Virus record (IMG/VR): IMGVR_UViG_3300037245_001773
Location: 8,209 to 72,208 of that record
From: a virus
Reading direction: 5' to 3' (one strand)
DNA: 64,000 nt
Made by a program: the position numbers and the translations under genes. The notes under the pieces were generated by a model. The model worked only from the letters and a program-made list of their open reading frames with translations. It had not been told where the DNA came from and searched no databases. This document shows, piece by piece, positions 22,470-39,980 of the stretch. Position 1 is the first letter of the stretch; each line of letters starts with the position of its first letter.

Positions 22470-23624
22470 CTATATGCCGTAAGTTTGATCAAGAGCAACC
22501 GCGTAGCGCATTGTCACGCCACCGAATTCCATCTCTGAATCAAAGTTGAAAAGAAGCCCTTTGATTGACATCGGCATCCAAATGATACTTTCGACAACGT
22601 TTGCCTCTAGGACTCGGTTGTCTTTTGGATACACAATCATCAACTGACTTGAGCCGGTTCCCTGATCAGACAGCTCGAAAATAACCACGAAATTGCTGAT
22701 TCCGTTGACTGCTGAATTGTTCAGGATGTACTGCATGATCGACGTGTCAGTACCGGACGACATACGCTCGTTTGCAAGAAAGTCGAATCTTGCTTGACTC
22801 AGAGCAACGGTCATTCCAGCCTTGCCATAAACACCGTAAGTCCTGGTTCGAACCCTGGAAACAGAATCAACGACATCGTGCATGATCTCATCGTTGGTCT
22901 TTTCTCCGCCTGGCCATGTCCTGTCAGTACCGGACGCGCCCAGCGGTGCTTGAGTATTCGTCACGCCAGTAGCGTTGATAAATCCCTCAAGTCCAAGTGC
23001 TGAGTTTCCAAGGAACATCTGAGTTTGAAGCCGTCTTGCATAACCGAGTTCAACAGCGATCAAATCTTCAGTGCTCAGAGGTACGCCAGCCATTGCAGCC
23101 TTGCGCAACTCTTGAGCTGTGTAGCCATAACCCAAAGCCCAAGAATAAACTTTATTCGAGAACTCAACGCCTTTGGCGTTTGCCCGTGGAACGTTCGTGA
23201 TGTTTCCGACTGCGGTCAGTTCAGCAAGTCCGGTATGATCGATGGTTCTGTATGTAATCCGATCAGTTCCGGGTGTGAACGTCTTGATTGGAAGAACTTC
23301 TTTCCAATTGTCCAGGGGCTTATGGATCACCGCGTAACGGGTGGGATCGATCTCTTCCAACTGACGGGCAAAAACGAGCCCTTCATTTGCATCGAAACGA
23401 CCGGATTTCTCCATGTTTTTGACAATCTCATCATCTGTCAATTCCCTGCTGTACTGGTTTTTGAAAGCGTTGTTTTCAATCGCCGCTTTCTCATACTCAA
23501 TCACCCGAAACTGCTCCTTAAGCTGATCGAGTCTGTACGGGGTGTCTTTCCCGTCAGGATTGATAGCTTTCATAATAAAGGGGTTGGCCTTTATCTCAGC
23601 CATCAAAGTATCTAAATATTCCAT
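22470..23624 (-). CDS. Major capsid protein (DUF2184, encapsulin-like HK97 fold)
   Basis: FARQLEEID, GYGYTAQELRKA, GNSALGLEGFIN and FGGVTMRY motifs. Confidence 0.9.
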   Translation of the reverse strand: MEYLDTLMAEIKANPFIMKAINPDGKDTPYRLDQLKEQFRVIEYEKAAIENNAFKNQYSRELTDDEIVKNMEKSGRFDANEGLVFARQLEEIDPTRYAVIHKPLDNWKEVLPIKTFTPGTDRITYRTIDHTGLAELTAVGNITNVPRANAKGVEFSNKVYSWALGYGYTAQELRKAAMAGVPLSTEDLIAVELGYARRLQTQMFLGNSALGLEGFINATGVTNTQAPLGASGTDRTWPGGEKTNDEIMHDVVDSVSRVRTRTYGVYGKAGMTVALSQARFDFLANERMSSGTDTSIMQYILNNSAVNGISNFVVIFELSDQGTGSSQLMIVYPKDNRVLEANVVESIIWMPMSIKGLLFNFDSEMEFGGVTMRYAVALDQTYGI

Positions 23625-23633
23625 TTATCCCCC

Positions 23634-24143
23634 TTATGTTAGAGTTGAGCCAATTCCTGCCGCGATATCGAGGTAGAAAAGGACAATGTCACCTGAGTCA
23701 CCACCCTCAAGATAATATCCCGGGACTTGGCTGGCTTTGTTGGTATCCAGGTCAATTCTCCAGGTTTTGGCCGCCGAGTCGCCGGTGGTATGAGTAAAAT
23801 ATCCGATATCATTCTTGACCACCGTATCGCCAAGCAATACAGCGATAGTTCCCTTTCTCAGGAGCGTAATCGGCTGGTCGTCTTCGTACGAGTTGACCCC
23901 GGTGCTGAGAGCTTTCTCGTTCTGAAACTCCGACCAAATGGCGATCCCTTGGAATGTTTTCTGGGTAAAAGCAGCCTCCGCGCCTTTGACATCAATTTCC
24001 GCCGTGCTTTGGACTGCTACCTCGCCCGGCTTCATATTGGTGTCGTCGTCAAGAATTCTGACCAGAGTTTCGGCGGTTTCGAGATCAACCACTTGGCCGG
24101 CCACCAAACGATCACGGAATTCACTTACTGTTGTTTGTGTCAT
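23634..24143 (-). CDS. Capsid decoration / cement protein
   Basis: Between protease and MCP; FQGIA and ITLLRKGTIAV motifs; TAATG coupling. Confidence 0.75.
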   Translation of the reverse strand: MTQTTVSEFRDRLVAGQVVDLETAETLVRILDDDTNMKPGEVAVQSTAEIDVKGAEAAFTQKTFQGIAIWSEFQNEKALSTGVNSYEDDQPITLLRKGTIAVLLGDTVVKNDIGYFTHTTGDSAAKTWRIDLDTNKASQVPGYYLEGGDSGDIVLFYLDIAAGIGSTLT

Positions 24144-25357
24144 TATCCGTTCCTCCATGCTCTGGCTTTATCGAATGCAGACGTTTCCCCTTCTTTGCCT
24201 GGTTCGAAACTGTGGTTATCAAGATTCTCCTTGGCGGCAATCTTCTTTTTTTCATGCTTATGATCCAGCATGTCAAACGCGGCCTTGGCGTAAACAGGAT
24301 TTTCAAGATCAGCATGCTTTGACTCTGGCAATTTGCCTGCTTTCTTGACCACCCCTACAATGATTTCTTCGTTGGTCATTTTATCCGCACCATCAAGCTT
24401 GTACTCGCTTGCTGTATTCAGATAACCTGACCTTTCCTTGACAAATTCATCCAGCTTTTCTTTCGGGATTGAATCTACATTCGCTCCCTCAAGCTCTGTA
24501 TTCTTAGCTTCAAGAATATCGAACTTTGCCTTGGATGCTACTGCTTCATTTGTCAAAGAATCAAATTTCTCAACAGCTTCTTTCAGTGCAGTTGTGAAAC
24601 GTTTCTCGCGCTTTTTCAGCTGAGTGATGACTCCCTTATATTCCTTAGGAAGCTCAACCTCTTCAGCATCAAGCCGAAAATCGCCAACCACTACCTCCGG
24701 TAGCTCCCGTTGAATAATTTCCATGATTGATTCCTCTTTATGGTTTTCGCTGATTTCCTCGGAGTCGATTCTCTCAGCTTCAATGCCGTTTATTGCGCTA
24801 TTACTATCAAGACGGATACGGCATGTTTCCCCGCCCCTAGCGTTCTTCACTCTTGCTATGTGGTTGTATCTTATGTTTTTTTGACGTTTTTGAAACTCAA
24901 CCCCTTCAAAGATACCCGATTCGTTTATTACATCACATCGATATCCGGCTGAAAGTTCTAAATCTTTTTCCCCTTCTATCGCTTTTATTTCTTTTCCATC
25001 AACAATTTTTAACGGTACTCTTGCATGATTTTCAACTCTAGAAACATCCTCCATTGACATTCCAAAAGTTTTATTAGCAGCGTTTTCAGGAGTAAACAGT
25101 TCAACATGATTTGATTGAGTTGTGTATGGCAGCCCCTTCAATGAATCCATTGTCTCGACAGAAAACACATCATCCGGGTGCCTTAATTCTCCCCACTCAT
25201 TACCAATAGAGTCCCGGTACATGAAAACACCGGCTCTTGTCGGAGTCGAATCAACCCTCAAAAAACCGTTGCTGTCTTTTTTTGGGTCATCTACTTTGAA
25301 CGCTGGAACGTTGACCTTGAAAAAGTCATACCTGATTTGGCCCATCATTTTACTCAT
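24143..25357 (-). CDS. Capsid maturation protease-scaffold (DUF2213)
   Basis: GFLRVD-x-x-P-TRAGVFMY, ELRHPDDVFS, ELSAGY and YNHIARV-x-x-ARGG motifs; coiled-coil C-terminus. Confidence 0.9.
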   Translation of the reverse strand: MSKMMGQIRYDFFKVNVPAFKVDDPKKDSNGFLRVDSTPTRAGVFMYRDSIGNEWGELRHPDDVFSVETMDSLKGLPYTTQSNHVELFTPENAANKTFGMSMEDVSRVENHARVPLKIVDGKEIKAIEGEKDLELSAGYRCDVINESGIFEGVEFQKRQKNIRYNHIARVKNARGGETCRIRLDSNSAINGIEAERIDSEEISENHKEESIMEIIQRELPEVVVGDFRLDAEEVELPKEYKGVITQLKKREKRFTTALKEAVEKFDSLTNEAVASKAKFDILEAKNTELEGANVDSIPKEKLDEFVKERSGYLNTASEYKLDGADKMTNEEIIVGVVKKAGKLPESKHADLENPVYAKAAFDMLDHKHEKKKIAAKENLDNHSFEPGKEGETSAFDKARAWRNG

Positions 25358-25634
25358 TGATTAACTCCCGTATTCCATTGATTAGCCACTCCCAAAAGTC
25401 CTTGAATTCAGAGATATACTGACGCATGAAAAAGAAAACCAGCCCGAACAAGGCAGCAAAAACCGCTATTCTGATGATGAAATTGTCATCCCTGGTCTTT
25501 GACTCTGACTGATTTAATGTAGCTCTCTCAGCCCTTGCCAGTGCAATTTTCAACAGCATATATATGATGCCTGCCATTGCAAGGATGTTGAAATAATACC
25601 AAACTAGCCCGGTTTGAGCGTAACTAAGAAGCAT
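25350..25634 (-). CDS. Small two-TM membrane protein (holin-like candidate)
   Basis: Two hydrophobic segments. Confidence 0.65.
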   Translation of the reverse strand: MLLSYAQTGLVWYYFNILAMAGIIYMLLKIALARAERATLNQSESKTRDDNFIIRIAVFAALFGLVFFFMRQYISEFKDFWEWLINGIRELINE

Positions 25635-26094
25635 TTTCCTTCCTCGGCATTCCGTAAAGTTTCGCGCCTGTATTCTTCTGGTTTCCCTTGAAGCATTGGG
25701 ACAATATCACAGCAGACGTAATCAATATGTACCCGAATCCATTATCCCCAAATGGCGGAACAAATGACTCAGTTGGCCATAACATTGCGAACGCTTGCCA
25801 TTGCCAATAATATCCAGTAGCCCCACATATAAAAAACTTGGCTAAATAATTAGTTGTGTAGTCCACATATCTAGCTGTGAGAAAGCAAACGATTACAAAC
25901 TGCCATATGATAAGCCCAAAAGTTCCAGATTTCACGGGAACGGAACTGTCACCGAGATAACCAGTTGTTACCAGCCCGATCAAAAACCCGTTAAACAAGG
26001 CAACCATCAGAATAATATTAGGCGTTATATTATCTGTTGCGGTTCTCAGAAAATCATTTACACCCTGGAGGGCGTCATCTGCTTTGTCTTTCAT
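25624..26094 (-). CDS. Four-TM membrane protein
   Basis: About four hydrophobic segments. Confidence 0.7.
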   Translation of the reverse strand: MKDKADDALQGVNDFLRTATDNITPNIILMVALFNGFLIGLVTTGYLGDSSVPVKSGTFGLIIWQFVIVCFLTARYVDYTTNYLAKFFICGATGYYWQWQAFAMLWPTESFVPPFGDNGFGYILITSAVILSQCFKGNQKNTGAKLYGMPRKENAS

Positions 26095-26095
26095 T

Positions 26096-26269
26096 TTACC
26101 TTTTCCTCAGTGCTCTGTTTAACGTGTTGCTTAACTCTTCATCTTTTTCTATTTCGTCATGTCCGGCCTCTACATATTTCGCAATGGTTGCCAAGTCGAA
26201 CTTGTTTGATCTTCTCATTGACTTGTTCGTATCATATTTATTTGATTTTGATTTCCTAACGGTTGTCAT
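26096..26269 (-). CDS. Small charged protein, 57 aa (not in ORF track)
   Basis: ATGA overlap; MTTVRKSKSNKYDTNKSMRRSNKFDLATIAKYVEAGHDEIEKDEELSNTLNRALRKR. Confidence 0.65.
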   Translation of the reverse strand: MTTVRKSKSNKYDTNKSMRRSNKFDLATIAKYVEAGHDEIEKDEELSNTLNRALRKR

Positions 26270-26973
26270 TCTTTGTCGTCCTCCACAAAGTCCTCAATTA
26301 CATCTGGACCGATTACACACCTAAACCGTTTTTGATCTTCTTTATTCTTGATTCTTTTGACTCTCCATGATTTAACAAAAACCGCTTCCATTTCTTCGTC
26401 TGGCAGAAACCCGTCGAAATAATCCTCACAATAATCATCGGCTGACATGCTGAAAAAAGTCGAGTGATCCAAGTTAAGTCTTGCGTTATCTTTTCCCCTC
26501 GCCGCTGATCTCATCACCATAAAATCTTGCTCATCATATATAGCGTATGCGAATATTTTCGAGAACTTTATTTTCTTGTCAAATTCAACATTGAACTTCG
26601 ATTCTAAACTTCGGACTCCCTTGGTATGGAAAAAAGGGTGCATGTTTAGTTTTGTGGATTTATGTCCTGATTCTTTTGCGAATATCTTAAAGAATCCCAC
26701 ATAATCATCTTTTGCCCCCGCATCCGCCAATCCACCGGCAATGTCTACACTCTTTGTATAATTCATTGTGAGTGCCATCATTGCTACTGTAAAAACACCC
26801 AAGAACATAAACCTTGCCACCTGATAACCAGCCGCTTTCTTGCCGAGTTCACATATCGTGTTCAAGAGTGGATGCCTTATCAAGAAATCAGAACGTCCTG
26901 TATCGGTGTCGAGTCTGGTCTCCTCTGTCTGATTTGTATCGCTGAATTCATCCAAATTAAATAAATTAGACAT
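26266..26973 (-). CDS. Single-TM hypothetical protein
   Basis: One TM segment (FMFLGVFTVAMMALTM); coupled to both neighbours. Confidence 0.7.
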   Translation of the reverse strand: MSNLFNLDEFSDTNQTEETRLDTDTGRSDFLIRHPLLNTICELGKKAAGYQVARFMFLGVFTVAMMALTMNYTKSVDIAGGLADAGAKDDYVGFFKIFAKESGHKSTKLNMHPFFHTKGVRSLESKFNVEFDKKIKFSKIFAYAIYDEQDFMVMRSAARGKDNARLNLDHSTFFSMSADDYCEDYFDGFLPDEEMEAVFVKSWRVKRIKNKEDQKRFRCVIGPDVIEDFVEDDKE

Positions 26974-28174
26974 CTATCGCCCCTGACTTTTGCGCTGTTT
27001 GGATTGCCTTGTCATTTGATGCAAATTGAAAAAGTTCATCAATCGGGTTGCACTCGTATCTTGTGGATCCGCACGCTCTGGAATTATCCAGGTTGACATC
27101 ATGCTTTTGTTCGTCTTTTTTGATCAGTTTGCTGCGTTCATCCAGTACCCCTGACCCCTTATCAAAAATTCTCACGGGTGCGCCGATACTTGTCACACTC
27201 AGACCAGTGTTATATTGCATGAGATAGACATCGTTATTCTTTACAATGTCCCCGTTCATAATCCCAAAACCTGTAAACATTGGCTTGGAATTGAAGAAAA
27301 CAGGATCCAGCATTGCAGCACAGACAGCTATGTAAATCGGCATATCCGGAAATGTCTTTCTTGTGATTGTCATGGTCCTACGTGAAATATCCCATACCGG
27401 AATATAAACATCTTTCTGGCATTCCTTGACTGTCAGATCTCGGTCTGTTCTCCCTCCTCCAGCACTCTTTGCCTTGAAGTAATTCCGGATAACTTTTTCC
27501 GCTTTCTTCGATTTGATTCTATCATTGTCTCGGTTCAGGAGAATGGAAGACGCTATTTCAACACCGACTTGAACGTATCCTTTTCTCACGACATTTAGAA
27601 AATCGCTCAGATACCACCGATTTAATTCATCTGCACTGTAACCGAGCGCACAACTGAACGCCTGTAATGAACCGAACCCGGCACCTGAAAAAACATCAAA
27701 TTCGGTTACTATTGAACCGTACCTTTCCGCGATCCTTCCTTCCAGTCTATGCTGAATTACTATCTGGCCGATTGTGCGGGTAAAATATGACTGATCGAAT
27801 GAAAGCGCCTTGCCTGTAAATTTCTGGTTAAGTGTTTCCTGGCTCTTTTGAATCTCGGCCCTGAAATATTGGTTCCCCGCAATCGACTTTTTGACGGGGG
27901 GTTCATCATATTTTTTTGGTGCTGTGGTTGCTTGCTCGTCAATGATAAAATGATAACTCGCGTTCATCAGGTAGCAATCCTGAAAGGTGATTTCCGCAAT
28001 GTTGTCTTCCGGTATCAGGACAATTTTAGGCGGCATTATCCCGGTTCCGGAAGTACATCTTATATATACAGGAGTACCGGCAAATTCAGATCCTACCCTG
28101 TATATTCTGCTATTCGGTATCTTGATGCGAAATTCTTGCCCTAGCTTTATCTGCTGGTTCGATTGCATTATCAA
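26966..28174 (-). CDS. Patatin/CapV-like phospholipase-fold protein with degenerate catalytic motifs
   Basis: ALSFDQSYFTR ~ ILSLDGGGIRG; FDVFSGAGFGSLQAFSCALGYSADEL ~ FDLIAGTSTGGIIALGLALGYSAEEL; AAMLDPVFF ~ ASSAAPTYF; NGDIVKNND ~ DGGVVANNP. Confidence 0.7.
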   Translation of the reverse strand: MIMQSNQQIKLGQEFRIKIPNSRIYRVGSEFAGTPVYIRCTSGTGIMPPKIVLIPEDNIAEITFQDCYLMNASYHFIIDEQATTAPKKYDEPPVKKSIAGNQYFRAEIQKSQETLNQKFTGKALSFDQSYFTRTIGQIVIQHRLEGRIAERYGSIVTEFDVFSGAGFGSLQAFSCALGYSADELNRWYLSDFLNVVRKGYVQVGVEIASSILLNRDNDRIKSKKAEKVIRNYFKAKSAGGGRTDRDLTVKECQKDVYIPVWDISRRTMTITRKTFPDMPIYIAVCAAMLDPVFFNSKPMFTGFGIMNGDIVKNNDVYLMQYNTGLSVTSIGAPVRIFDKGSGVLDERSKLIKKDEQKHDVNLDNSRACGSTRYECNPIDELFQFASNDKAIQTAQKSGAIDV

Positions 28175-28610
28175 TCTCGGTTATCATTGTTTTAATCTGG
28201 CTTTCTTCTGTAGATTCTACCAGGTAAGATAAATAGCATGCCACATTTTGATTTACCAGCGTTTCGTCTGAGAAAAAAGCCTCTTTCTGGTCACTGTGTC
28301 TTATTCTTAAAATTCCACCGTTGACATATAGATAATGGTGACCGTCGAAAATTAGTCCTTTTGTCCTCGGTGTTATTTCGTTCAACTCTTTCACAAAGTC
28401 CGTTACTTTCAAAGGACTTTCAAATGCCCCGGTTCCAAATAATCTGTCATTCTCGAAATATTGTGGCGGCACGCTTCTGTTGGGAGTCAGAGATTGTTCC
28501 CTTATGTTCGTTGCCTTTAATCCATTCTGCACTGATTCCAAAAACCAAGGATTCCTTGTCGGGTTCTTTTTATCTGGTCTTTCCTTGTATGTGGTTAATA
28601 AGTTTTTCAT
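28110..28610 (-). CDS. Hypothetical protein
   Basis: ATGA-coupled to the gpF-like gene. Confidence 0.65.
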   Translation of the reverse strand: MKNLLTTYKERPDKKNPTRNPWFLESVQNGLKATNIREQSLTPNRSVPPQYFENDRLFGTGAFESPLKVTDFVKELNEITPRTKGLIFDGHHYLYVNGGILRIRHSDQKEAFFSDETLVNQNVACYLSYLVESTEESQIKTMITEIDNAIEPADKARARISHQDTE

Positions 28611-29647
28611 GCTGCTTTTTTCCTCGCCTCAACAGTATCGGGATGGCTCACACCTGTTATTTCGTCATAAATTGCCTGTGGCCAACAACGATCTTGAATA
28701 TCAGTTCCGGCATGATGCCTTTCACCTGCTCTTTTTCCCTTGAAAACTGTGACCGGGGGATCATTCCACTTAATTATCACCCCTTCTAGCCGTTTATGGT
28801 CTGAATATCCGTCTGAATTTGCCAATGATCTGACCCTGCCATCCTGCCTTGTTCTCCAAATATACTCAGTAACACCGGACTTTCTTTGGCGGGCCTCTTC
28901 AATATTGGCCGTCAACTTTCCGATCTGGTCACGGGCAATTAATCTGGCTCTATTTTTTGCGTTTCCTGTCAATTCCTGAATCTTCGCTCTTGCCGTGGCT
29001 GTCAATTCGCCTTTCCGTACAGCGTCTTTGGTGATTTGCTCTATCTGAGAAAAGTATTGACCCGGGACTGTTTTGATTAAAGAGATGTTTGCCTGCAAAG
29101 AATCTTGAATAAATTCATCCACGTTTAACTGTGCCGGTAATGGCTTGGTTCCGGTCTGTCTTTCGAATTCATTAACAAATTGCGTCTCTGTTTTTTCTTT
29201 GACTCTGTTTAAAAATGGTTTCACGGTTTTATTCAATGATCTGGTAAAAATCTCTTGCCTTGGTTCCGTGTTGGGTTTTACTGATTCGCCGAAAAACATG
29301 CTCTTCATTCTTGCGATCAATGCGGCTACCAGTGTGATTCCTGCCAGTTCTTTAAATTGTACGTCTAGCCTGATTTCTTTTATAAACGGGATGCCGATAA
29401 GGTCACAGGCTTCTTTTTTACTTATGAGACTGGTGTCGAATCGTTCTGTTTTATGGTTCGTTAATCTATCGAGTTCAGGGAGTAAGACTTTTTTTGTTAT
29501 TTCATCGATTTTGTTTATCTCTTTGATGATTGCCTTTCCGAATTCCATTTCGATCATGCGATTCTCGGGGGGTTCTTTGAAAGCGCGGGTCTTTCTCCTG
29601 TTTGATAGTTGTTTTTTGATTCGCTTTCTTTGTGCTTCAGTTGGCAT
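28607..29647 (-). CDS. Head morphogenesis protein (Mu gpF / SPP1 gp7 family)
   Basis: RARLIARDQIGKL, YIWRTRQDGRVR, H-x-x-L-E-G and GTDIQDRC motifs. Confidence 0.9.
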   Translation of the reverse strand: MPTEAQRKRIKKQLSNRRKTRAFKEPPENRMIEMEFGKAIIKEINKIDEITKKVLLPELDRLTNHKTERFDTSLISKKEACDLIGIPFIKEIRLDVQFKELAGITLVAALIARMKSMFFGESVKPNTEPRQEIFTRSLNKTVKPFLNRVKEKTETQFVNEFERQTGTKPLPAQLNVDEFIQDSLQANISLIKTVPGQYFSQIEQITKDAVRKGELTATARAKIQELTGNAKNRARLIARDQIGKLTANIEEARQRKSGVTEYIWRTRQDGRVRSLANSDGYSDHKRLEGVIIKWNDPPVTVFKGKRAGERHHAGTDIQDRCWPQAIYDEITGVSHPDTVEARKKAA

Positions 29648-30473
29648 TAATGGCTCTTAATGGTTTTGTTAGTGCGTCTTCTGTTGACCACCCGCGACCA
29701 ATCCTGTTGCTTATTACTTTTTTTGGTATCCCAGTTTTATTAGACCACTCCATGGCTGTCGCAGTAATTCCATTGTATGTGTGCAGGGCTGGCTTCTTTA
29801 TTTGTTTTGTTATGGCATCTTCGAAGCTCATTCCCTTTCGCATTCTGCTGTCAACAGTTTCCGGCTTTATGCCGTTCCTCCTGCACCATTGTGCAAATGT
29901 CAGTGTTTGATTTTCATACGTATAAAATGTATTTGATCTTCTGTTGTTTGCCTGCTCCATTGGAGTTGCCCACTTGCAATTGTCCGGAGAGTATCCCTTG
30001 TCGTTGTCTTCCCTTTCTATTGTCATTCCGTCCGGGACGTCTCCCATGTCTGAGTAGAAATTTTCAAACTTTGCCCACCTCTCACAGACTTTTATACCTC
30101 GGCCACCGTAGTATTTATAGTCTTTGTCATTCTCGTTGTGGCACCTATTCTTTATTTTTAGCCACCTTCTATATGACTTTGTTATTGTGCCATTTGATGA
30201 GTGCCCGTGTGTTGTTGCCCTTTTAATCAAAGACTTAATTTTTCCGCAGCCACAACTCTTCGTGTGCCCACTTATTAAATCATTTGATGCAACCTTTGTA
30301 ATAGACCCACAATCACAAACGCACAACCACATTATTTTTTTATTTTCGTAGTCAGTTCGGTACAGAACGTCGATATCTCCAAATCTTTTGCCGGATAAAA
30401 TGTATTTTAATTTTTTTCTCCTAATAGTATTAGGACCTTTCCTGGATTGTTGTAGCTCAAATAATATGCTCAT
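29637..30473 (-). CDS. HNH-type homing endonuclease (second copy)
   Basis: WLCVCDCG, TKSCGC, YYGGRGIKVCERW and TIEREDNDKGYSPDNCKWAT motifs; two C-terminal DNA-binding repeats. Confidence 0.88.
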   Translation of the reverse strand: MSILFELQQSRKGPNTIRRKKLKYILSGKRFGDIDVLYRTDYENKKIMWLCVCDCGSITKVASNDLISGHTKSCGCGKIKSLIKRATTHGHSSNGTITKSYRRWLKIKNRCHNENDKDYKYYGGRGIKVCERWAKFENFYSDMGDVPDGMTIEREDNDKGYSPDNCKWATPMEQANNRRSNTFYTYENQTLTFAQWCRRNGIKPETVDSRMRKGMSFEDAITKQIKKPALHTYNGITATAMEWSNKTGIPKKVISNRIGRGWSTEDALTKPLRAINAN

Positions 30474-30487
30474 AGTTTTCTGTTTAA

Positions 30488-31357
30488 TTACAAGTCTTTG
30501 TAATCACTAGAGGCGGCGTCGGTAATTGCTTTCTGTGCATCGCTCCCCTCAATCCCAAGCTCTGAAACCTTGAATTGAACTGTGCTCGAACGGGGTAATA
30601 CCCAATAAATTCTGTTGTTTGCGGGATCGTAAGTGCCGTTTACTTTCTGTCCGCTATAGAAAACTCCACTCAACTCAGCAGGCAAGCTGATGATTTCAGC
30701 AGTTCCAGTGAGGCTTGCAAGGCTGACAGTCGGACGTTGGCTGGAAACGAAAATTGAGACCTCATTTTCTCCCGCCCCACTACTCGGGGTAATTACAATC
30801 GCGGCCCCGGCGTAAGTGTCGGTTGTCGTTCCGGATACGGTTAAATCTTCTGGGACTGTAAAAGAGTATTGAGGTTTAGCGAGAACAACTTTATATGCTC
30901 CATCATCCAAGGCAAATACAACTATGCCGCTTGAATTGGTGTTTTTTGAGTCAAGCTTTACCGTTTGGGCTGCATTCCATACTTGAACTTCTACGCCTAG
31001 AATTGGGACTGGAACAGCATCGTTAACAGTGATCGTGACAGAATTAGCACCGGGACCAGAAGAGGCTGATTCAACCCATCCACCGACACGGAAGAAACCG
31101 GAATACTTCTTTGTGGTGGCGTCCACCATCGTCCAATAGTATTCAGCGAATGCGGTCGGAGGCGTTACCAGATCAGAAAGGGGATAGTAGAAAACTCCTG
31201 TTGTGCCAATTTGAACAGCTGTTCCGGTTGTCATTGCTTCCGGAGTTGCGGACCCGTCTTTATATACAGCGACGGTTATCGCATCAAGATTGGCGAATAC
31301 CCCGAGAAAGGAGTAGACTTTTGATGATGCAAATTCAGAGAGTTTTATTCTGTCCAT
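30488..31357 (-). CDS. Ig-like / carboxypeptidase-regulatory-like virion protein
   Basis: VTITVND-x-x-x-x-PILGVEV...TNSSGIVVFALDDGAYKV...YSFT. Confidence 0.65.
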   Translation of the reverse strand: MDRIKLSEFASSKVYSFLGVFANLDAITVAVYKDGSATPEAMTTGTAVQIGTTGVFYYPLSDLVTPPTAFAEYYWTMVDATTKKYSGFFRVGGWVESASSGPGANSVTITVNDAVPVPILGVEVQVWNAAQTVKLDSKNTNSSGIVVFALDDGAYKVVLAKPQYSFTVPEDLTVSGTTTDTYAGAAIVITPSSGAGENEVSIFVSSQRPTVSLASLTGTAEIISLPAELSGVFYSGQKVNGTYDPANNRIYWVLPRSSTVQFKVSELGIEGSDAQKAITDAASSDYKDL

Positions 31358-31635
31358 TATTTAGACTCCCATGCGCTTATGTTCTTCCATTCTCCAGTGG
31401 AATCATCCAGAATATCAAAGACACCTCCCCTGGTTTTTTTGTTCTTGTGCATTAAATCCCATATTTCTTTAAGGAATTCGGATACTGAGAGGCTATAATC
31501 AAGCTCAGGGTATTCTGTGCTGACCCTATCCTTTTTTCTCCTGTAATCAACATACCACTGAAGAGCGTCAACTTCGTCACCTTCAAAATCATCAGGTAGA
31601 TGGATGTATCCTATGAATTGGAGAATTTTCATCAC
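31357..31635 (-). CDS. Hypothetical protein
   Basis: Coupled ORF. Confidence 0.6.
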   Translation of the reverse strand: MMKILQFIGYIHLPDDFEGDEVDALQWYVDYRRKKDRVSTEYPELDYSLSVSEFLKEIWDLMHKNKKTRGGVFDILDDSTGEWKNISAWESK

Positions 31636-31805
31636 TTGGTCTCGCCTCTTTCTATCTCAAGGTTCATTTTTTCCAAAAGATCTTCAGGGACTTGTTTTAA
31701 GGACTTTAACTCTTCGATCAGGTCTTTAACATCACCATAGGGGCACGTTCTTAAATAAGCATACAACGCCCCTATAAATTCACCTTTGATTAAATGCATT
31801 ATATT

Positions 31806-32330
31806 TTACCAGCTTGCAATCGCAACACGTTCCCATTCATCTGTTCCCACACAAATATAGATGAAGTCAGCATCCCATGCGATAGTCCCGGCTGTTCCAG
31901 TATCATTTGCTGCTGATGGGGTTTTAGTTGCTGTTATCAAAAGACCTGAAGCCGTAATATTAACCCCGGTGATATTTCCAGAGGCCGCAAAATCAACCGA
32001 CCCTGCGTTACCAGTTACCGCGAGAATACCTGGGAGTGTCACGGTTCCAGCATCATCAATGATGACCTCATGTTCAACCCCGGCACCATCCTGGAAATAA
32101 GCCTTGTTATCGGCCTTGTAATAGATTGTCCCGAAGTCCGGCACCGCTGTCGGGGTTGTGATCTCAGGGAGCCCAACAAATCCAGCTGTCACAGTCAACG
32201 CCTTGAGTGTCACTGTTGTGGCCGCTTCGACACTTGCCACAATCTCAGATGCCGTTCCTGATTTCCAATCCGTACCGATGTGCGCGTCAATCAAGGCGAT
32301 TATTTCGCCTGCTCTCACTGTTCCGTACAT
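31806..32330 (-). CDS. Fibre-like virion protein
   Basis: C-terminal TPSAANDTGTAGTIAWDADFIYICVGTDEWERVAIASW motif, typical of viral fibre proteins. Confidence 0.65.
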   Translation of the reverse strand: MYGTVRAGEIIALIDAHIGTDWKSGTASEIVASVEAATTVTLKALTVTAGFVGLPEITTPTAVPDFGTIYYKADNKAYFQDGAGVEHEVIIDDAGTVTLPGILAVTGNAGSVDFAASGNITGVNITASGLLITATKTPSAANDTGTAGTIAWDADFIYICVGTDEWERVAIASW

Positions 32331-32476
32331 TACTTGTCCTCCTTTTTTTCTTCTTCTTTCTTGCCGAAATTAAACTTGTCTTTCCGTTCGTTCAATCCTT
32401 TTTCGTGAGCTTCCTTTGCCATCATTCCGGCGTCTTTTTTCTCTTCCTTTTCTTTCTTCTCAAAATTAAATGGCAT
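32330..32476 (-). CDS. Small K/E-rich peptide, 48 aa (not in ORF track)
   Basis: AAGGAG RBS; MPFNFEKKEKEEKK...KFNFGKKEEEKKEDK; TAATG coupling. Confidence 0.6.
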   Translation of the reverse strand: MPFNFEKKEKEEKKDAGMMAKEAHEKGLNERKDKFNFGKKEEEKKEDK

Positions 32477-32506
32477 GTTTTCTCCTTTATTTTGGTTTCT
32501 GTTTTA

Positions 32507-32535
32507 ACGATACACTGAACATTTGTTCTTGTCAA
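32507..32535 (-). promoter_or_regulatory. Sigma70 promoter with a GAAC-N4-GTTC palindrome in the spacer
   Basis: TTGACA-N17-TATCGT; GAACATTTGTTC at 32517-32528. Confidence 0.65.
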
Positions 32536-32544
32536 ATTTTCAGT

Positions 32545-34818
32545 TTATACCCCTATCATTATCACATTATCTGGTAATGTTGCGTGGCTTGATGTTTTCC
32601 ATAATTCATTTGCAATAGCTCCAGATCCTATCTGTGTCGCTCCTGACTTCATATTCGTCAGCAATGTGGGGTTGGTAAGGTCAAGCGTTTGATTTGGGGA
32701 CCTGCCAGCCAATAAAAGGTATTGAGCGTGATCATCGTCGGCCAAACCCGCCATATCTCCGTGATCACTTACACCCGCATTAGCAAATAACTGATCAAAC
32801 GCTGAAGATATTGTTGCTGTGTCCGATGATTTTTGAAATGTAAACCTTGCAGCTAATAAAGATGTTTCTGTTATTTTTGACGGTAAGGATGAACTGGGAA
32901 CCGCTTCATTGTCAGCCGCAAATTCCGAATTATGTTGAGCGCGTCCATAAACCATAACAATATGGTCATCTGGTTCAATAAAAAAGAATAAGTTGGCCCA
33001 CTTGTTATTGCTTAAAGTGGTCAATGTTCCAGCATTGTCATATTGTAAATTATTCCATTGGGATGCTGCCGCTTCCTCTTGTCCTCCCGCTGAATATGTT
33101 GAAAAGGTATCTGCACCCGAAGTGTTGAAAGTGGATATGGGATATTCAGTTCTGCCCCACCAAATCGATCCTGACGTCACGGAAACATCTCTATTAGCAT
33201 CTCCTGACTGTCCGAAAATCAATCCACCTTTTCTTTTATCTCTACTTAAACCAAAGACCCGTCTGATAAATCTACCGGCCTGACCTATGCTTTCTTGGAG
33301 TCTAACTCCCAATGAAAAAACATGTTCGACAGCTCCGTTTTCTTTTGTGACTACTCCAATTTGAATTTTATCAGGAGTTTCTAAAAACTCATCTGTGCTT
33401 AATGAGATAACGCCTGAATCATCGACGTAAACATATTGAGTAGTGTTATCTGTAACCGCTATACCTAGTGATTCTGACCACTTGAAAGACTGCAATTCAG
33501 CGTTAGGATCATTAGTTGTGCGGATAAACCCTGATCCGGCAGATACGTCAAGAGTTCCTGATCCACCATCACTTAAGATGCCACCCAGGAAGAAACCGGA
33601 TGATCCTGTATTGTCTAGATACTCTTGTAATTGATCTACTGTTGGGGTGCCTGATCCTTTGGCAATAGACACCGAACTGCTTGGAACTTCAGAAAAGTTT
33701 GTACCCTTGAATGTTGGGCTTGATCCGCTGGTTACATCTTGGTCAATAAGTGAATGATCACTGCCATCTGACCCACGATGAGTATCATTAAGCGCTACGT
33801 TGGCGTGATCTGATCCGTTCCCAGATCTATGAGAATTATTTAAAACAACGTCGGAATGGTCTTTTCCGTCACTTGACCGATGAGTATCGTTTAGAGCAAC
33901 GTTTGCATGGTCAGACCCATTTCCGGTTCGATGACTATTGTTCAGTACTAGGTCGGAATGATCCTTGCCATCTGAAGTTTTGTGTGTCGTATTTAAAGCA
34001 ACATCTGAGTGATCAGAACCGCTCCCCGATCTATGAGAGTTATTAAGAACTACATCTGAGTGATTCTTCCCGTCCGAACTTCGATGAGTTGTATTTGCGT
34101 CAACATTCGTATTGGCGTTGACTCTCGCTTCAGTATAATAAAGATTCGATCCCTCCTCAACATCGTCTGTATTTTGAGTTTCCCATATTGCGTCCCCTGC
34201 CTCGCCTGAATCTTTTGTTAAATGCTGGCCTGCTGTCCCGTCTGGAGGCAGACCCAGTTTCCAATCTGACGTACCTAAAATCTTGGTAAATTCGGCAATG
34301 ATCTCTTTTGCATCGATTCCAGCATGAGAGGGTAGTTTGATTTTGCCTGACTTCAATTGCTTGACAAGTTCGATAATATCTTGCTTGCGGTCTTTAATCA
34401 GTTGGGTAACGTCGATTAAATCAGCTATTTCTTTTTTGTCTCTGTCTGTCAGTGGGAGGGGTTGAGCGTCTTGACCGGGCTCTCCCTGCTCACCGGGAAT
34501 GCCTTGTTCACCATCTTTGGGTACTTCGATTTGATCAAGTACGGATTTTTGAAAGGCTTCTTTTACTTCAGGGGAAAATATTTCATCCCGATAAAAGTCA
34601 ACTCGCTTTTCATCGTCTGTGGATTTGACTTGATCTAAAAGCTGTTTGACTATTTCTGATGAATCTAACTTAGGGGTTTGGATTGAGGATTGAACGCGCG
34701 CAACTATATTGTCAATTTCAGATTGATCGAAACGTATTTTTCTTTTGTCTAACTGTTCGATTATCTCTGATATAATTTCAAACTTTAATTTTTCTCTTGA
34801 TTCAGGGGTTGCTTTCAA
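32545..34818 (-). CDS. Large fibre-like head-module protein (coiled coil, short collagen stretch, His repeats, beta-rich C-terminus)
   Basis: GEQGIPGEQGEPG, GTAGQHLTK, TDDVEEGSNLYYTEAR and DHGDMAGLADDDHAQY fibre motifs. Confidence 0.75.
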   Translation of the reverse strand: MKATPESREKLKFEIISEIIEQLDKRKIRFDQSEIDNIVARVQSSIQTPKLDSSEIVKQLLDQVKSTDDEKRVDFYRDEIFSPEVKEAFQKSVLDQIEVPKDGEQGIPGEQGEPGQDAQPLPLTDRDKKEIADLIDVTQLIKDRKQDIIELVKQLKSGKIKLPSHAGIDAKEIIAEFTKILGTSDWKLGLPPDGTAGQHLTKDSGEAGDAIWETQNTDDVEEGSNLYYTEARVNANTNVDANTTHRSSDGKNHSDVVLNNSHRSGSGSDHSDVALNTTHKTSDGKDHSDLVLNNSHRTGNGSDHANVALNDTHRSSDGKDHSDVVLNNSHRSGNGSDHANVALNDTHRGSDGSDHSLIDQDVTSGSSPTFKGTNFSEVPSSSVSIAKGSGTPTVDQLQEYLDNTGSSGFFLGGILSDGGSGTLDVSAGSGFIRTTNDPNAELQSFKWSESLGIAVTDNTTQYVYVDDSGVISLSTDEFLETPDKIQIGVVTKENGAVEHVFSLGVRLQESIGQAGRFIRRVFGLSRDKRKGGLIFGQSGDANRDVSVTSGSIWWGRTEYPISTFNTSGADTFSTYSAGGQEEAAASQWNNLQYDNAGTLTTLSNNKWANLFFFIEPDDHIVMVYGRAQHNSEFAADNEAVPSSSLPSKITETSLLAARFTFQKSSDTATISSAFDQLFANAGVSDHGDMAGLADDDHAQYLLLAGRSPNQTLDLTNPTLLTNMKSGATQIGSGAIANELWKTSSHATLPDNVIMIGV
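33739..34095 (-). repeat. Seven tandem 51-nt (17-aa) His-x7-His repeats
   Basis: NTTHRSSDGKNHSDVVL and NNSHRSGSGSDHSDVAL types alternate; 357 nt = 7 x 51. Confidence 0.9.
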
Positions 34819-36563
34819 ATCTCTATTTCCTGATCTAGTTTTTTGCTGATTTCATCAAGTCCCTTCTGAATATCGTCTATCTCTTTCGCATGGTCGATCT
34901 GTTCCGGGATTTTAACGTTGACAATTGGGGCTTCTACGATTATCTGTGGTTCGAGTTTTATGATTTGGTCTTTCTTTTCTTCTGGCTTCTCTGGAATTTC
35001 CGGTGGAATGACTTGATTCTGTTTTGCGGCCTCATCACTGATGGCCTTTTCCATCTTGATGCCTTCGAGTTCTTCAGCCATTGCGTCGGCCTCTTCCGGG
35101 GTGAACTCGTCTTTCATTTCTTCCCGGGCTTTGAAATCGATGATCATAGATTCAAGGTCAACCGTGTCCTTACTGAAACGAGATATTCCGACTTCTTCAG
35201 GACTTACAACGTTTAAATTAACGTAAATTTCATCCTTTTGAGCTACAGTGTAGGCTGTATCGGCCTTGTCTTTGTCTGATTGTTCCTGTAATGGGTTGAA
35301 TACGTATGACGGTAATTCTGTCAGCATTCCGACTGCCATATTCACAAACGTCATGAACTCATTTAACCATGGCCTGAGTTGAATCTCTTGTTTTGAGTGG
35401 ATCCCATTGAAATATGTTCTAGTGTCTGATTCAGAAGATGTTCCCCCTAGATTGCCTGACTCAGAAGAGAAAAATCTTGATTTGGGGATACTTGCGGCCC
35501 CGCATATTGCCTCTGTGTACCTGTCCCATAGGTCGGCAAGACCGGTTATTGGCGTTCCTTTGCGCTCCATTTTCTCTGAATCGGCATCATACACATTGAG
35601 ACGGTTCGACGTCATATTAAAATGAGTCATAGCCAAGCGGTCAAGTATATAGTCAGGGTCGCTTCCGGTCATCACTTTTTCTGCCAGGCCCTTCATTCCG
35701 AGATAATCCTGGGTGAAGGTTTCCATTGTGCTGTTGGATTCCGTGACACAGATACCATAGTCTCTCAGAGCTGTATAAACTGCCTGCAGCTCTGAATCAT
35801 CCCACCCTCTGTTGAGAGTACGTGGTGTTTGAGTGGTGAAACGTCCGTCCATGCGGATAAGTCTGGATTCGTGAACGTTCAGCGTCTTGCCGCCTGCGGG
35901 TTCCCTGATAATGACTTGGTAATGTTCAGGTTGTAACCATTTGGGGTCGTTTACGTCTTGATACCATGTAACAGGGATTGCAAACCATGCCGGAACCTGC
36001 CTAACCCACCTGATTTCTGAGACTTGATTTTCATTGAGAGGTTCCCAGAAATCATCAGGACCGCTAACGTCATCAAAATTAAACACGGTCACAGAACCAC
36101 CGGACGCGCGCGCGAGGGCTATGGACTGGAAAGCTGTTTGCCATAACTTGAACTGCTCATTCAGGAGATCATCGAAGTCTTCTACCTCTTTTTGGATTTT
36201 TATTTGATCTGTGGCTTCTTTTTCTTCACCTTCTTTTGATTCGTCGTCGTCGTTGTGCTTGTATGAGATACCATTGCGGGTCATGTCTTCGCTCGGCGCG
36301 TCTATAATTTTTCTAGAAACCCAATCAGACTGGTAAAGATCTTCTTGTTGTACGGTGTCTACTTTTGGAATGCCGGTGTATTGTGAGTTTGCCACGGGAT
36401 GTTGGGCGCGCGTTCCAAATCCGGTTGATGGATTGGTCCATGCGTCCATTCTTTTGGAACGTGGGATTCTTAAGGCTGGGTCGATGTCTTTGAGCGGTTT
36501 TAGGTCGTAACCCTTTGAGGCTAACAGTAATCTTTCGTCTGCGAATGCGTTGGATTGCGCCAT
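34815..36563 (-). CDS. Portal protein (DUF1073 family)
   Basis: LYQSDWVSRKIIDAPSEDMTRNG, VHESRLIRMDG and ICGAASIPKSRFF motifs. Confidence 0.9.
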   Translation of the reverse strand: MAQSNAFADERLLLASKGYDLKPLKDIDPALRIPRSKRMDAWTNPSTGFGTRAQHPVANSQYTGIPKVDTVQQEDLYQSDWVSRKIIDAPSEDMTRNGISYKHNDDDESKEGEEKEATDQIKIQKEVEDFDDLLNEQFKLWQTAFQSIALARASGGSVTVFNFDDVSGPDDFWEPLNENQVSEIRWVRQVPAWFAIPVTWYQDVNDPKWLQPEHYQVIIREPAGGKTLNVHESRLIRMDGRFTTQTPRTLNRGWDDSELQAVYTALRDYGICVTESNSTMETFTQDYLGMKGLAEKVMTGSDPDYILDRLAMTHFNMTSNRLNVYDADSEKMERKGTPITGLADLWDRYTEAICGAASIPKSRFFSSESGNLGGTSSESDTRTYFNGIHSKQEIQLRPWLNEFMTFVNMAVGMLTELPSYVFNPLQEQSDKDKADTAYTVAQKDEIYVNLNVVSPEEVGISRFSKDTVDLESMIIDFKAREEMKDEFTPEEADAMAEELEGIKMEKAISDEAAKQNQVIPPEIPEKPEEKKDQIIKLEPQIIVEAPIVNVKIPEQIDHAKEIDDIQKGLDEISKKLDQEIEI

Positions 36564-36714: not shown

Positions 36715-37083
36715 TTAACCGGCCAGGGCTGCCAGATCTCGTTTTTGTGTGTTGTTTGCCGTCAGGGGCGATAAATCCAGACCGATCCCCGTTCGGTGTG
36801 CCGCCTCCCAATGGTTAAGAATTCCGGCAATTAGGGTTTCGGACCTTGTAATTGTATTTGGCTCCGTTTTGCTGCTGGCTTCGTTGGGGATAATATAGAT
36901 AGTCTCGTTGTCGAATTGACTAACATCACGACAATGAACGGTGTTGGCCGTTGACTGTCCCATAAAAACGGGGGTAACGAATTCCGGCACGCTTTGTGAC
37001 ATTCCAAGTTCAGCCGCAAAAATTACGGGACTGAACAAGATTGCCAACATGAAGGCCAGAATACTGAATAAACTTAATTTCAA
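36715..37083 (-). CDS. Secreted hypothetical protein
   Basis: Signal peptide; GAGG RBS with TTG start. Confidence 0.55.
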   Translation of the reverse strand: MKLSLFSILAFMLAILFSPVIFAAELGMSQSVPEFVTPVFMGQSTANTVHCRDVSQFDNETIYIIPNEASSKTEPNTITRSETLIAGILNHWEAAHRTGIGLDLSPLTANNTQKRDLAALAG

Positions 37084-37559: not shown

Positions 37560-37979
37560 TTATTTATCAACCGCCTTATGAGTAAGCAGACCGATTGCGA
37601 AAGGAAATAGCAGAATAAACTGAAGCGGTATTTTGTGAATATACGCCAAATAGGAGCACACAAAGCAAACGACAGGTAATGCCCAACCGTGGGTAAACCC
37701 TCTATGTTTGTCTGAGCTGAAGGCCATATATACGATGCCCGTCACCGCTGAATGTCTGTCTTTCCCGTACCACATAAGCAGAGCCGCGATGATAATTCCA
37801 GCCCATGCGAACATCCTTGACGGTATACTTCCGGTATCGATATCGCTTGCCAGGGAACCGATTACAGTCACCCCTGCAAACGCTAATCCTGCAACTGGAT
37901 TCTTTGTGATGTACCAGGCAGTTGCTCCGGTTATTAGTCCGGTTGCGGTTCCTGCTAATGCGTGCGCTCGAAAATTCAC
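37560..37979 (-). CDS. YdjM-family membrane metal-dependent hydrolase
   Basis: AH, GSLASDID, HRGFTH and H-x-x-x-D motifs; several TM segments. Confidence 0.8.
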   Translation of the reverse strand: MNFRAHALAGTATGLITGATAWYITKNPVAGLAFAGVTVIGSLASDIDTGSIPSRMFAWAGIIIAALLMWYGKDRHSAVTGIVYMAFSSDKHRGFTHGWALPVVCFVCSYLAYIHKIPLQFILLFPFAIGLLTHKAVDK

Positions 37980-38494: not shown

Positions 38495-39175
38495 TTACAT
38501 CCACCCCTTTAATCTTTCAATAATCGTTAATTGTCTGACAGGCTTCACACCTAACGCTTTCATGTTCCGGATGATGTGTTTGACTGCCATGATTTTATTA
38601 TAATAGTTTTGCGTCTCCGATGGCAAGGTGGATTTGCCTAATAGCCACGATTTTACTCGACTGGCTCCGCAGTTATAAGCGAGTATGGATAACTTGGCTG
38701 TTTCTTTGTGGTATCTGAATTGCTTGAATAGGATCCCCATATGTTTTGCGCCGAGTCGGGTGTTTATCACTGGATCTTTGCCGTACTTCAATATTTTGGC
38801 CGGTGTGGGTACCATTGTGAATGTTTGGCCCATGATTGTCTTCTCTTTGGTCATGTAATGCCGAATATTGAAGGGCATGAGCTGCCATAAGCCGATTGCG
38901 TTTGATCTGCTGATAGCGTCAGGCTTGAATGATGATTCCACAGCTGGAACAGCGATCAACCATCTCGGCAAGTCTTCTTTGTCCAGGTATTTGAACATCA
39001 TTTTCGAGTAGCCCACCATGCGCCCGAGAATTAATTCCAGGTCTTGCTTGCAAGCTCGGTTCTTTTCAAGGGTTGTGCAATCTCTGAGATAAAAATCTGT
39101 CCATTGTTCGATGCTGAAAACGGTTGCATTTAGATGGAATGGAATGAGCAAAAAAAGAATGATCAAGATTCTCAT
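38495..39175 (-). CDS. Lytic transglycosylase (SLT/MltD-like) with signal peptide; endolysin candidate
   Basis: AVESSFKPDAISRSNAIGLWQLMP, LAYNCG and ETQNYY motifs. Confidence 0.88.
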   Translation of the reverse strand: MRILIILFLLIPFHLNATVFSIEQWTDFYLRDCTTLEKNRACKQDLELILGRMVGYSKMMFKYLDKEDLPRWLIAVPAVESSFKPDAISRSNAIGLWQLMPFNIRHYMTKEKTIMGQTFTMVPTPAKILKYGKDPVINTRLGAKHMGILFKQFRYHKETAKLSILAYNCGASRVKSWLLGKSTLPSETQNYYNKIMAVKHIIRNMKALGVKPVRQLTIIERLKGWM

Positions 39176-39400
39176 TTATTTGTTTTGAGGTGGAATTCTG
39201 ACGACTGCTTGCATTGGAAACATGTGAACCATGAAACTAACATCACCTCTTTTATCTTCAAGACGCTTTCCAGGCGGAAGCAAATCTTTTTCGATGTCTT
39301 CCCAGTCTCGATCTATTAATGATCTTTTCAACCGGTCTTCTATCATTTCTTCAAATGTCTTGCGCGGTAGTGCGTCTGCTTTAATTTTGTTTGGCTTCAT
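39176..39400 (-). CDS. Hypothetical protein
   Basis: Coupled ORF. Confidence 0.55.
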   Translation of the reverse strand: MKPNKIKADALPRKTFEEMIEDRLKRSLIDRDWEDIEKDLLPPGKRLEDKRGDVSFMVHMFPMQAVVRIPPQNK

Positions 39401-39750: not shown

Positions 39751-39980
39751 CTCTCCTCTGTATGTTCTGATATTATTTTTAACATCGGGTATCCCCATGT
39801 GAATATTATGCCAATAGAGGTGCACAATAAATTAAACCATATTGGATAAAAAGACAGGATTCCTAATTTTAGGGGATCAAATAAATACGTTGAAGAAAAA
39901 AAGAATTGGCCCAACAATGGAATGAGACCAATTACAATGATGACCCTGCCAACCATAAGTAATTTCTTTTCCTTGTCCAT
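39747..39980 (-). CDS. Small two-TM membrane protein
   Basis: Two hydrophobic segments; ATGA-coupled to tad1. Confidence 0.6.
   Translation of the reverse strand: MDKEKKLLMVGRVIIVIGLIPLLGQFFFSSTYLFDPLKLGILSFYPIWFNLLCTSIGIIFTWGYPMLKIISEHTEER

Follow-up and report, generated by a model that had tools for sequence, protein, structure and literature searches.

A CapV-like patatin lacking its catalytic residues is a fixed component of a membrane-protein module in the late operon of an uncultured myovirus

Known phage counters to CBASS, a system of antiphage signalling based on cyclic oligonucleotides, destroy or sequester its cyclic-nucleotide signal. Here we describe a phage gene related to a CBASS effector, i.e. 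a pseudo-phospholipase gene (hereafter the pseudo-lipase gene; 26966..28174, minus strand) in a 64,000-nt stretch of DNA (the window) that corresponds to bases 8209-72208 of the 72,208-bp virus record IMGVR_UViG_3300037245_001773; all coordinates are those of the window unless another contig is named. The record has direct terminal repeats, its completeness is rated 100%, and its source is an uncultured myovirus. The described proteins closest to the product of this gene are the CBASS lipases CapV and CapE, represented by AbCapV (8zr9/9jeh) and CapE (9iom/9ion), which have a compact single-domain patatin fold with a Ser-Asp dyad and a glycine-rich oxyanion loop and are encoded beside a cGAS/DncV-like nucleotidyltransferase (CD-NTase). 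In AbCapV, the site for cyclic GMP-AMP (cGAMP) is built between three protomers of a filament and not inside one subunit (PMC12480259, sections 8 and 9, from which all AbCapV residue roles given below are also taken). The fold is shared by plant patatin (1oxw/4pk9) and other patatin-like phospholipase (PNPLA) lipases, namely iPLA2-beta (6aun) and PlpD (5fya), and is represented in Pfam by PF01734.

Two phage systems are relevant for comparison. Wolbachia phage WO carries, in its late region, a CapV-like patatin annotated as patatin-like phospholipase A2, which lies with a small holin-like membrane protein beside the tail module and is put forward in the account of PMC9203015 as the enzyme of a lytic cassette. 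Gp15 of phage ICP3, an ejectosome protein of the ICP3/T7 type encoded in a structural operon, inhibits CapV directly, as demonstrated by experiment according to bioRxiv 10.1101/2025.07.23.666291; it thus neutralizes the CBASS effector and not the signal. A catalytically dead CapV or patatin from a phage is described neither in the literature consulted nor in the main text, without supplements, of an anti-defence catalogue (preprint 10.1101/2025.06.06.658234), in which the terms patatin, CapV and phospholipase have 0 occurrences.

The pseudo-lipase has the compact patatin fold of CapV and CapE (Z 24-25 over about 250-265 aligned residues) and retains the Arg of the GGGxRG loop, the Pro of block III and an aromatic residue at the Y202 dimer contact, but it lacks the Ser-Asp dyad and the glycine-rich oxyanion loop, seems not to conserve the cGAMP-contact residues, carries an added N-terminal beta-sandwich and linker, and is encoded in a phage late operon together with membrane proteins, not beside a CD-NTase. 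The patatin fold is complete (residues 120-402; 26969..27817). An AlphaFold2 model built with 33 homologues as input has a mean predicted local distance difference test (pLDDT) score of 83.7, and Foldseek returned AbCapV 8zr9 as its best match (E 1.1e-12), CapE and plant patatin also being found (range 1e-12 to 3e-11). With VIA-align, model residues 120-402 gave Z scores of 25.4 against 9kh6 (a CapV-like lipase), 25.1 against CapE, 24.6 against patatin, 24.2 against AbCapV, 23.3 against iPLA2-beta and 23.1 against PlpD. The plant patatin and PNPLA lipases thus share the fold (Z 23-24.6) and the order of the four conserved blocks, whereas the pseudo-lipase has all three catalytic blocks altered and stays below the Pfam gathering score (PF01734, E 0.0012; 19.6 bits against a 27.7-bit cut-off). 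Searches of the PDB by sequence found nothing significant, either with the single sequence (best E 0.46) or with a profile (best match CapE, E 0.33).

When the family profile was aligned by hhalign with a profile of 22 Ser-bearing CapV-like lipases (probability 99.6%, E 1.4e-23, 191 columns), the nucleophile Ser was matched by G166, the catalytic Asp by N307, the GGGxRG Arg by R133, and the A-P pair of block III by D290-P291. The glycine-rich oxyanion loop DGGGxRG is replaced by FDQSYFTR (residues 126-133; 27776..27799), and in this region, which reads F-D-Q-S-Y-F-T-R-T, only the Arg (R133) of G-G-G-x-[KR]-G is retained. The nucleophile elbow G-x-S-x-G is replaced by G-A-G-F-G (residues 164-168; 27671..27685), with G166 at the position of the Ser, and the catalytic D-G-G by N-G-D (residues 307-309; 27248..27256). 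An earlier reading of the window made from the DNA letters alone (the sequence-only reading) had proposed a patatin fold in the C-terminal part with all three catalytic signatures altered; the Foldseek, VIA-align and hhalign results bear out the fold, and the profile alignment confirms each altered signature at the place given for it, including the elbow at 27671-27685. Judged from these replacements, the protein is a pseudo-enzyme, i.e. a protein of CapV/patatin fold that would be unable to hydrolyse lipids by the patatin mechanism.

The dead site is a property of the whole family. A word-indexed search yielded 33 proteins, 32 of which were aligned with the full-length open reading frame (ORF) of the window (33 rows). 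Across this close family, in which identity falls to 36%, 29 columns are invariant; the residues conserved in 33/33 include F126, D127, Q128, S129, R133, G164, G166, G168, Q171, D262, D290, P291, K312, R335, R372, C375, D379, and E380. The elbow is G-x-G-x-G and the oxyanion loop FDQS in all 33, and position 307 is occupied by N in 25, A in three, T in two, and K, S, and G in one each. When 1.84 billion representative proteins were searched exhaustively with a profile, 61 matches at E <= 1e-3 were returned. All 36 matches with E <1e-5 lack the elbow Ser, and the 22 Ser-bearing matches start at E 1.3e-5. With 38 more distant relatives added to give an alignment of 44 rows, 40 rows have Gly in the nucleophile column; the other four are fragments with a gap there, and no row has Ser.

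The reading frame is intact in all homologues. The ratio of nonsynonymous to synonymous substitution rates (dN/dS) against the 82%-identical copy in locus L001 is 0.067 overall, 0.076 in the N-terminal part and 0.063 in the lipase part (synonymous divergence is about 1.5, so that the ratios are approximate), and the ratio of the neighbouring protease, 0.159, is above that of the pseudo-lipase. The catalytic loss is thus fixed across the family under strong purifying selection, and the gene is not decaying. The sequence-only reading had inferred loss of the motifs without decay of the frame and had asked whether homologues keep the dead site and the synteny with dN/dS below 1; no homologue has GxSxG, dN/dS is about 0.07, and the gene order is conserved.

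Among active proteins, the nearest relatives by sequence comparison are CapV-type CBASS lipases, in agreement with the kinship to CapV proposed earlier. Of the 22 Ser-bearing relatives, 21 match the NCBIfam family CBASS_lipase NF041079 at E <= 1e-5. When nine were scanned singly, this was the best family in 9/9, and four exceeded its 200-bit cut-off; a profile of the Ser-bearing relatives finds CapV structures at E 1e-60. The window protein itself matches the PADLOC CBASS phospholipase model at E 3.2e-7, versus 1.2e-3 for Pfam Patatin, and scores 18.5 bits on NF041079 (E 2.6e-5 in a scan of its own genome), which is under the 200-bit cut-off; hmmscan of the protein returned no NCBIfam family at E <= 0.001. 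No match to SMODS (PF18144) was found in the 72,208-bp genome. The pseudo-lipase family is an inactive variant of a known fold with new partners, which no Pfam, PHROG or NCBIfam family covers.

AbCapV residues were mapped to the phage family through two chained profile alignments (active set to AbCapV, then to the phage family). The phosphate-contacting R21 corresponds to R133, the nucleophile S58 to G166, and the catalytic D192 to N307; the acyl-pocket residues I59, P175, and L195 correspond to F167, P291, and I310, respectively, and the dimer contact Y202 to Y317 (Y in 23, F in six, and L in four sequences). The phage family thus appears to retain the Arg that binds phosphate, some of the acyl pocket and the aromatic at the dimer contact. 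Its median net charge is +7 (between +1 and +12) versus -0.5 for the active CapV-like set, and this basic charge would fit binding to anionic membranes.

The annotated gene encodes 402 aa from a TTG codon at 28174, as delimited from the ORF list and the homologue alignment. An ATG follows two codons later at 28168 (M3), and this is the likely start because the frame upstream of the TTG is open for just two codons. The public gene model (P0001, 356 aa) begins at M47, which is too late and drops most of the conserved N-terminal domain; the present analysis corrects this database model. Several metagenomic homologues seem to be truncated at the N-terminus in the same way. A programmed frameshift fusing the upstream 166-aa ORF to the pseudo-lipase was considered and ruled out, the pseudo-lipase frame being open for just 2-7 codons upstream in four loci. 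Structure models place a six-stranded beta-sandwich at about residues 5-80 (27935..28162), with a pLDDT of 79 when this domain is modelled separately. The domain is conserved among homologues and has the low dN/dS given above; it is real and coding, as the sequence-only reading had supposed in noting an extra N-terminal domain. A wide VIA-align search with it gave a best Z of 5.5, to the C-terminal sandwich of glycoside hydrolase family 29 (GH29) fucosidases; this marks the domain as a beta-sandwich of generic type and does not point to a function. The linker that follows (residues 81-119; 27818..27934) is modelled with low confidence in its first part and as a helix from residue 98 onward, and contains conserved Y89, P92, K96, S97, G100, F104, and R105.

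The pseudo-lipase gene lies among the late structural genes. The gene order around it, all on the minus strand and with the late genes closely packed, is portal (34815-36563), unknown genes, HNH endonuclease, MuF, six genes of unknown function including the pseudo-lipase gene, DUF2213 protease, cement protein, major capsid protein, and tail sheath and baseplate. Pfam and PHROG matches identify the boundaries of the six-gene module as a MuF-like minor head protein (28607..29647) upstream and a DUF2213 prohead protease/scaffold (24143..25357) downstream. From upstream to downstream, the other module genes encode a 166-aa soluble, mildly acidic protein whose fold has no assignment (28110..28610, upstream of the pseudo-lipase gene), a 235-aa one-span membrane protein with a hydrophobic segment at residues 52-70 and a C-terminal domain containing conserved Cys residues (C182 and C219; 26266..26973), a very basic small ORF of 57 aa with a net charge of +5 (26096..26269), the slot of which is variable between relatives, a 156-aa multi-span membrane protein with a C-F-x-G-N motif at its end (25624..26094), and a 94-aa two-span membrane protein, the last module gene before the prohead protease (25350..25634).

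This arrangement was compared across 17 distinct loci of the close family, window included and duplicates removed. In every locus, the pseudo-lipase gene lies between MuF and the prohead protease/scaffold. Where the contig holds the relevant sequence, the 166-aa gene is upstream in 15/15 loci, the 235-aa gene directly downstream in 11/11, and the 156-aa gene next in 10/10. The 166-aa and pseudo-lipase ORFs overlap by about 59 nt (28110-28168) in different frames, and the overlap is comparable in all other close-family loci with both coordinates listed. A protein atlas gave the 166-aa protein a best score of 0.85, which is below the meaningful level, and no usable match for the 235-aa protein; a complex prediction for the pseudo-lipase with the 166-aa protein (score 0.00, mark 0.32) weighs neither way on binding. 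The module membrane proteins have no match to a known holin, spanin or exclusion family in Pfam and PHROG scans.

Upstream sequence of at least 3 kb is available for 35 of 41 viral loci that encode a related DUF2213 protease, and the pseudo-lipase is present in only 3/35, i.e. those whose protease matches near full length at >=41% identity; the module is therefore a lineage-specific insertion that has become fixed within the lineage. At locus L009, where the protease is 35% identical, the same slot after MuF and before the protease is occupied by a 339-aa protein (L009:6774-7793, plus strand). It has only the N-terminal domain in common with the pseudo-lipase (hhalign E 4.6e-5; 100 bits with a hidden Markov model) and no lipase fold: the N-terminal domain is followed by a hydrophobic segment and then by an unrelated C-terminal part. 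A motif in that part, C-x-x-x-A-G-R-L, resembles a stretch similar to formylglycine-generating enzyme (FGE)-sulfatase proteins in L046:10310-11152, at motif level only, hhalign not being significant.

A second pseudo-lipase subfamily, with about 23% identity and the elbow G-Q-G-x-G, was found on three other viral contigs, directly after baseplate and tail-fibre genes. Its layout consists of a small acidic ORF overlapping or abutting the start, the pseudo-lipase, a one-span protein (two of the three loci), and a multi-span protein; the one-span protein in L046 contains the FGE-sulfatase-like stretch. Between the two module versions, the multi-span proteins are homologous (hhalign probability 89.7%, E 1.9e-6), and both end in C-F-x-G-N. 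The one-span proteins of the two versions have no detectable homology (hhalign probability 0.2%), the L009 protein has no significant match to either of them, and the small ORF lying upstream of the distant pseudo-lipase resembles the 166-aa protein only weakly (probability 47%, E 1.9e-4), which is no more than a hint. The composition of the module is kept in two different late-operon positions, and it therefore behaves as a self-contained functional unit acting at the membrane. These data indicate that the pseudo-lipase gene is a fixed unit of a multi-gene membrane module in the late structural operon and not a free-standing accessory gene. Such a context suggests that the protein acts at the membrane, and it is atypical for a free-standing anti-defence gene.

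We tentatively favour, with a probability of roughly 45%, the reading that the pseudo-lipase is a non-catalytic CapV look-alike that serves as a soluble, positively charged subunit of a late phage membrane module, binding where its active relatives cut. On this reading, the module would be expressed together with the late structural genes, and the basic dead-lipase domain would bind the inner membrane face or the integral partners without cutting. Jointly with its membrane partners, the dead lipase would keep the N-terminal beta-sandwich positioned at the cytoplasmic membrane's inner face, a job that a direct membrane anchor would do for the N-terminal domain in L009, and the 235-aa one-span protein would have its Cys-containing domain facing outward. 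As to its role, the protein may mimic a host CapV-type CBASS lipase, either by occupying the membrane sites of CapV or by joining and stalling CapV dimers or filaments, so that membrane destruction would be blunted when late phage proteins trigger CBASS. Such mimicry is suggested by the kinship to CapV, by the presence of a Tad1 homologue in the genome and by the precedent of Gp15, which is a functional analogy only, since the fold of Gp15 is unrelated to that of the pseudo-lipase. We regard an anti-CapV role as plausible and as the leading one among the specific roles considered, though its probability taken alone is low. That the module as a whole is a new anti-CBASS device, in which a membrane-anchored dead CapV look-alike neutralizes the effector and its gene was taken from the very defence system it opposes, is unlikely.

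Several observations weigh against mimicry of CapV or against the membrane role as such. The fold alone does not single out CapV, since CapV, CapE, plant patatin, iPLA2-beta, and PlpD lie within about 2 Z units of one another. The invariant polar residues of the close family are lost in the distant subfamilies, so that there appears to be no single ligand site common to the whole extended family. The pseudo-lipase has no hydrophobic segment of its own; it possibly associates with the membrane, binds lipid or CapV and has an effect on defence, and these contacts are ones that we infer. Anti-defence genes are usually patchy in distribution and located in early or accessory regions. The pseudo-lipase gene belongs to a late structural operon, where it is fixed, and its evolution is slower than that of the protease gene, which is unusual for a protein tracking a host target. 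CapV-like patatins are also carried by phage WO, and the ancestor could therefore have been a phage lytic lipase and not a host defence gene; descent from a host CapV and descent from a phage patatin may both be considered.

This last point leads to the best-placed alternative, which we consider unlikely, namely that the module is a late membrane module unrelated to CBASS, acting in lysis timing, superinfection exclusion or the blocking of DNA entry, and that the pseudo-lipase derives by degeneration from a lytic patatin of phages. CapV-like patatins are confined, in deposited phages, to six Wolbachia WO records and one uncultured phage, and the distant pseudo-lipase subfamily, directly after tail-fibre genes, resembles in its position the proposed WO cassette (PMC9203015). 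The one-, two- and multi-span membrane proteins of the module would suit such functions, and slow, head-protein-like evolution fits a core function. Against this, a dead lipase cannot be a lytic enzyme, unlike the proposed role of the WO protein, and none of the module membrane proteins belongs to the holin, spanin or exclusion families mentioned above. The phage furthermore has a separate candidate lysin, a 226-aa protein with a soluble lytic transglycosylase (SLT) domain (38495-39175, minus strand; PF01464, E 4.1e-23) and an N-terminal hydrophobic segment at residues 3-21, which is either a signal or an anchor of the signal-arrest-release (SAR) type. Two genes near the SLT gene (36715-37083 and 37560-37979) encode a two-span protein of 139 aa and a protein of 122 aa whose N-terminus has a hydrophobic segment. 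The region at 36.7-39.2 kb, immediately upstream of the portal gene, probably serves lysis. The lysin families PF00959, PF01510, and PF13539 have no match in the phage genome; PF05838 and PF00182 also gave no match, but their controls were silent as well, so that these two scans are uninformative. An exported SLT-type lysin encoded elsewhere in the phage genome makes it less likely that the pseudo-lipase is a simple lysis enzyme.

In all close-family loci the gene is flanked by MuF and the prohead protease/scaffold, a location that would also suit a capsid-internal protein that is targeted to the prohead by its beta-sandwich and linker, is injected with the DNA, and aids membrane passage or acts early against defence. 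The N-terminal domain is modular, being joined in the corresponding slot of L009 to another C-terminal part, which accords with this; the conserved and poorly ordered interdomain stretch (Y89, P92) could be a processing site, and inhibition of CapV by a virion protein has a precedent in Gp15 (bioRxiv 10.1101/2025.07.23.666291). However, the distant subfamily lies beside tail-fibre and not head genes, the N-terminal domain of L009 is attached to a membrane-spanning protein, and the multi-span membrane proteins of the module are unlikely as capsid cargo. The pseudo-lipase has no PHROG match and no cultured relative among 50,697 deposited phages. We think an ejected protein clearly improbable.

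Strict polar conservation in four loops of the old active site could instead reflect a repurposed enzyme, with a new active site assembled from D127, S129, R133, D290, D309, K312, and D315 and catalysing a different reaction. D127, Q128, S129, R133, D290, and K312 are conserved in 33/33 sequences of the close family, and D309 and D315 in 31/33. FDQS, D290, and K312-N-N-D315 are lost from the distant subfamilies, whose architecture and module are the same; R133 (R in 33 and K in two of 37 non-gapped rows) and G166 are all that persists there. No known catalytic motif was recognized in Pfam, PHROG, and NCBIfam scans, and the prospect of a new enzymatic activity is a slender one.

The sequence-only reading had proposed that the fold is kept for binding as a cyclic-oligonucleotide sponge, i.e. 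that a dead patatin sequesters CBASS signals such as 3'3'-cGAMP; its other options were a dominant-negative CapV subunit and a lipid-binding virion protein. Retention of a dead patatin fold under selection stands, and the nearest active relatives are lipases activated by cGAMP or cyclic UMP-AMP (cUA). The many invariant polar residues of the close family surround the former active-site loops, and phosphate could be bound by R133 and the G-x-G-x-G turn, which lies where a strand passes into a helix. The phage does invest in signal sponges: the Tad1-like sponge that had been noted in the same genome is real, its gene (39397-39825, minus strand) adjoining the SLT gene and its product matching the Tad1 structures 7uav/8kbh over residues 25-140 at E 4.6e-15, with no Pfam match. 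The sponge proposal itself loses ground. The four protomer-A contacts of AbCapV to 3'3'-cGAMP appear not to be conserved, F147 aligning to T269 (T in 16, V in 12, A in three, and I in two sequences), K149 to T271 (T in 28/33), D159 to F275 (F or Y in 28), and E207 to a gap; the ligand-contact region is weakly conserved and this alignment indicative only. The apparent loss of these contacts disfavours a CapV-style sponge, and so does the formation of the CapV site between three filament protomers (PMC12480259). The membrane-protein partners and the N-terminal domain would have no role in a sponge. Known sponges of the Tad1, Tad2, and Acb2 families have no likeness in sequence or fold to the pseudo-lipase, a 402-aa patatin fold with membrane partners; PDB sequence searches and fold searches with it returned only patatin-type lipases and none of these sponge families. 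The likeness therefore lies in the proposed purpose, and the true Tad1 homologue is a separate gene. A sponge function is accordingly remote. That the gene is a decaying or drifting functionless copy, which the loss of all catalytic motifs might suggest, is refuted by the intact frame in all homologues, the 29 invariant columns, the dN/dS and the conserved synteny, and its probability is negligible.

The lineage has no cultured relative in the phage collection searched. Neither the pseudo-lipase protein nor the 12 kb of DNA around its gene has a match there, and the relatives of the prohead protease in the collection are all at <=31% identity. A scan of bacterial genome contigs with the family profile found no relative, hence no prophage copy and no host clue. 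Promoters and terminators predicted in 23500-32600 were at chance level (19 promoters found versus 17.0 +/- 3.7 expected; eight terminators versus 7.6 +/- 2.9).

Other genes of the region also vary between relatives. The HNH endonuclease gene (29637-30473, minus strand; phrog_374, E 3e-68) lies between a 289-aa gene and MuF. In the relatives L002, L004, and L056, the 289-aa gene and MuF adjoin directly and nothing matches the HNH gene, which looks like a mobile homing-type insertion confined to this genome. The MuF homologue in L004 (L004:5187-7274, plus strand) has 695 aa, twice the 346 aa of the window's MuF, and may bear an extra N- or C-terminal domain. A 757-aa protein encoded directly after the portal (32545-34818, minus strand) has no Pfam or PHROG match, and its relatives share short N-terminal stretches only.

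If the mimicry of a CBASS effector is true, it would represent a counter-defence distinct from destroying or sponging the signal, and this conserved dead relative of CapV would offer a convenient case in which to study effector mimicry in bacterial immunity, with a virus taking and disarming a host immune effector. Even if its role is unrelated to defence, the gene defines an unannotated pseudo-enzyme family of 39 or more clusters in the 1.84 billion representative proteins, which has a fixed set of membrane partners and forms a portable multi-gene module in two late-operon positions of uncultured phages.

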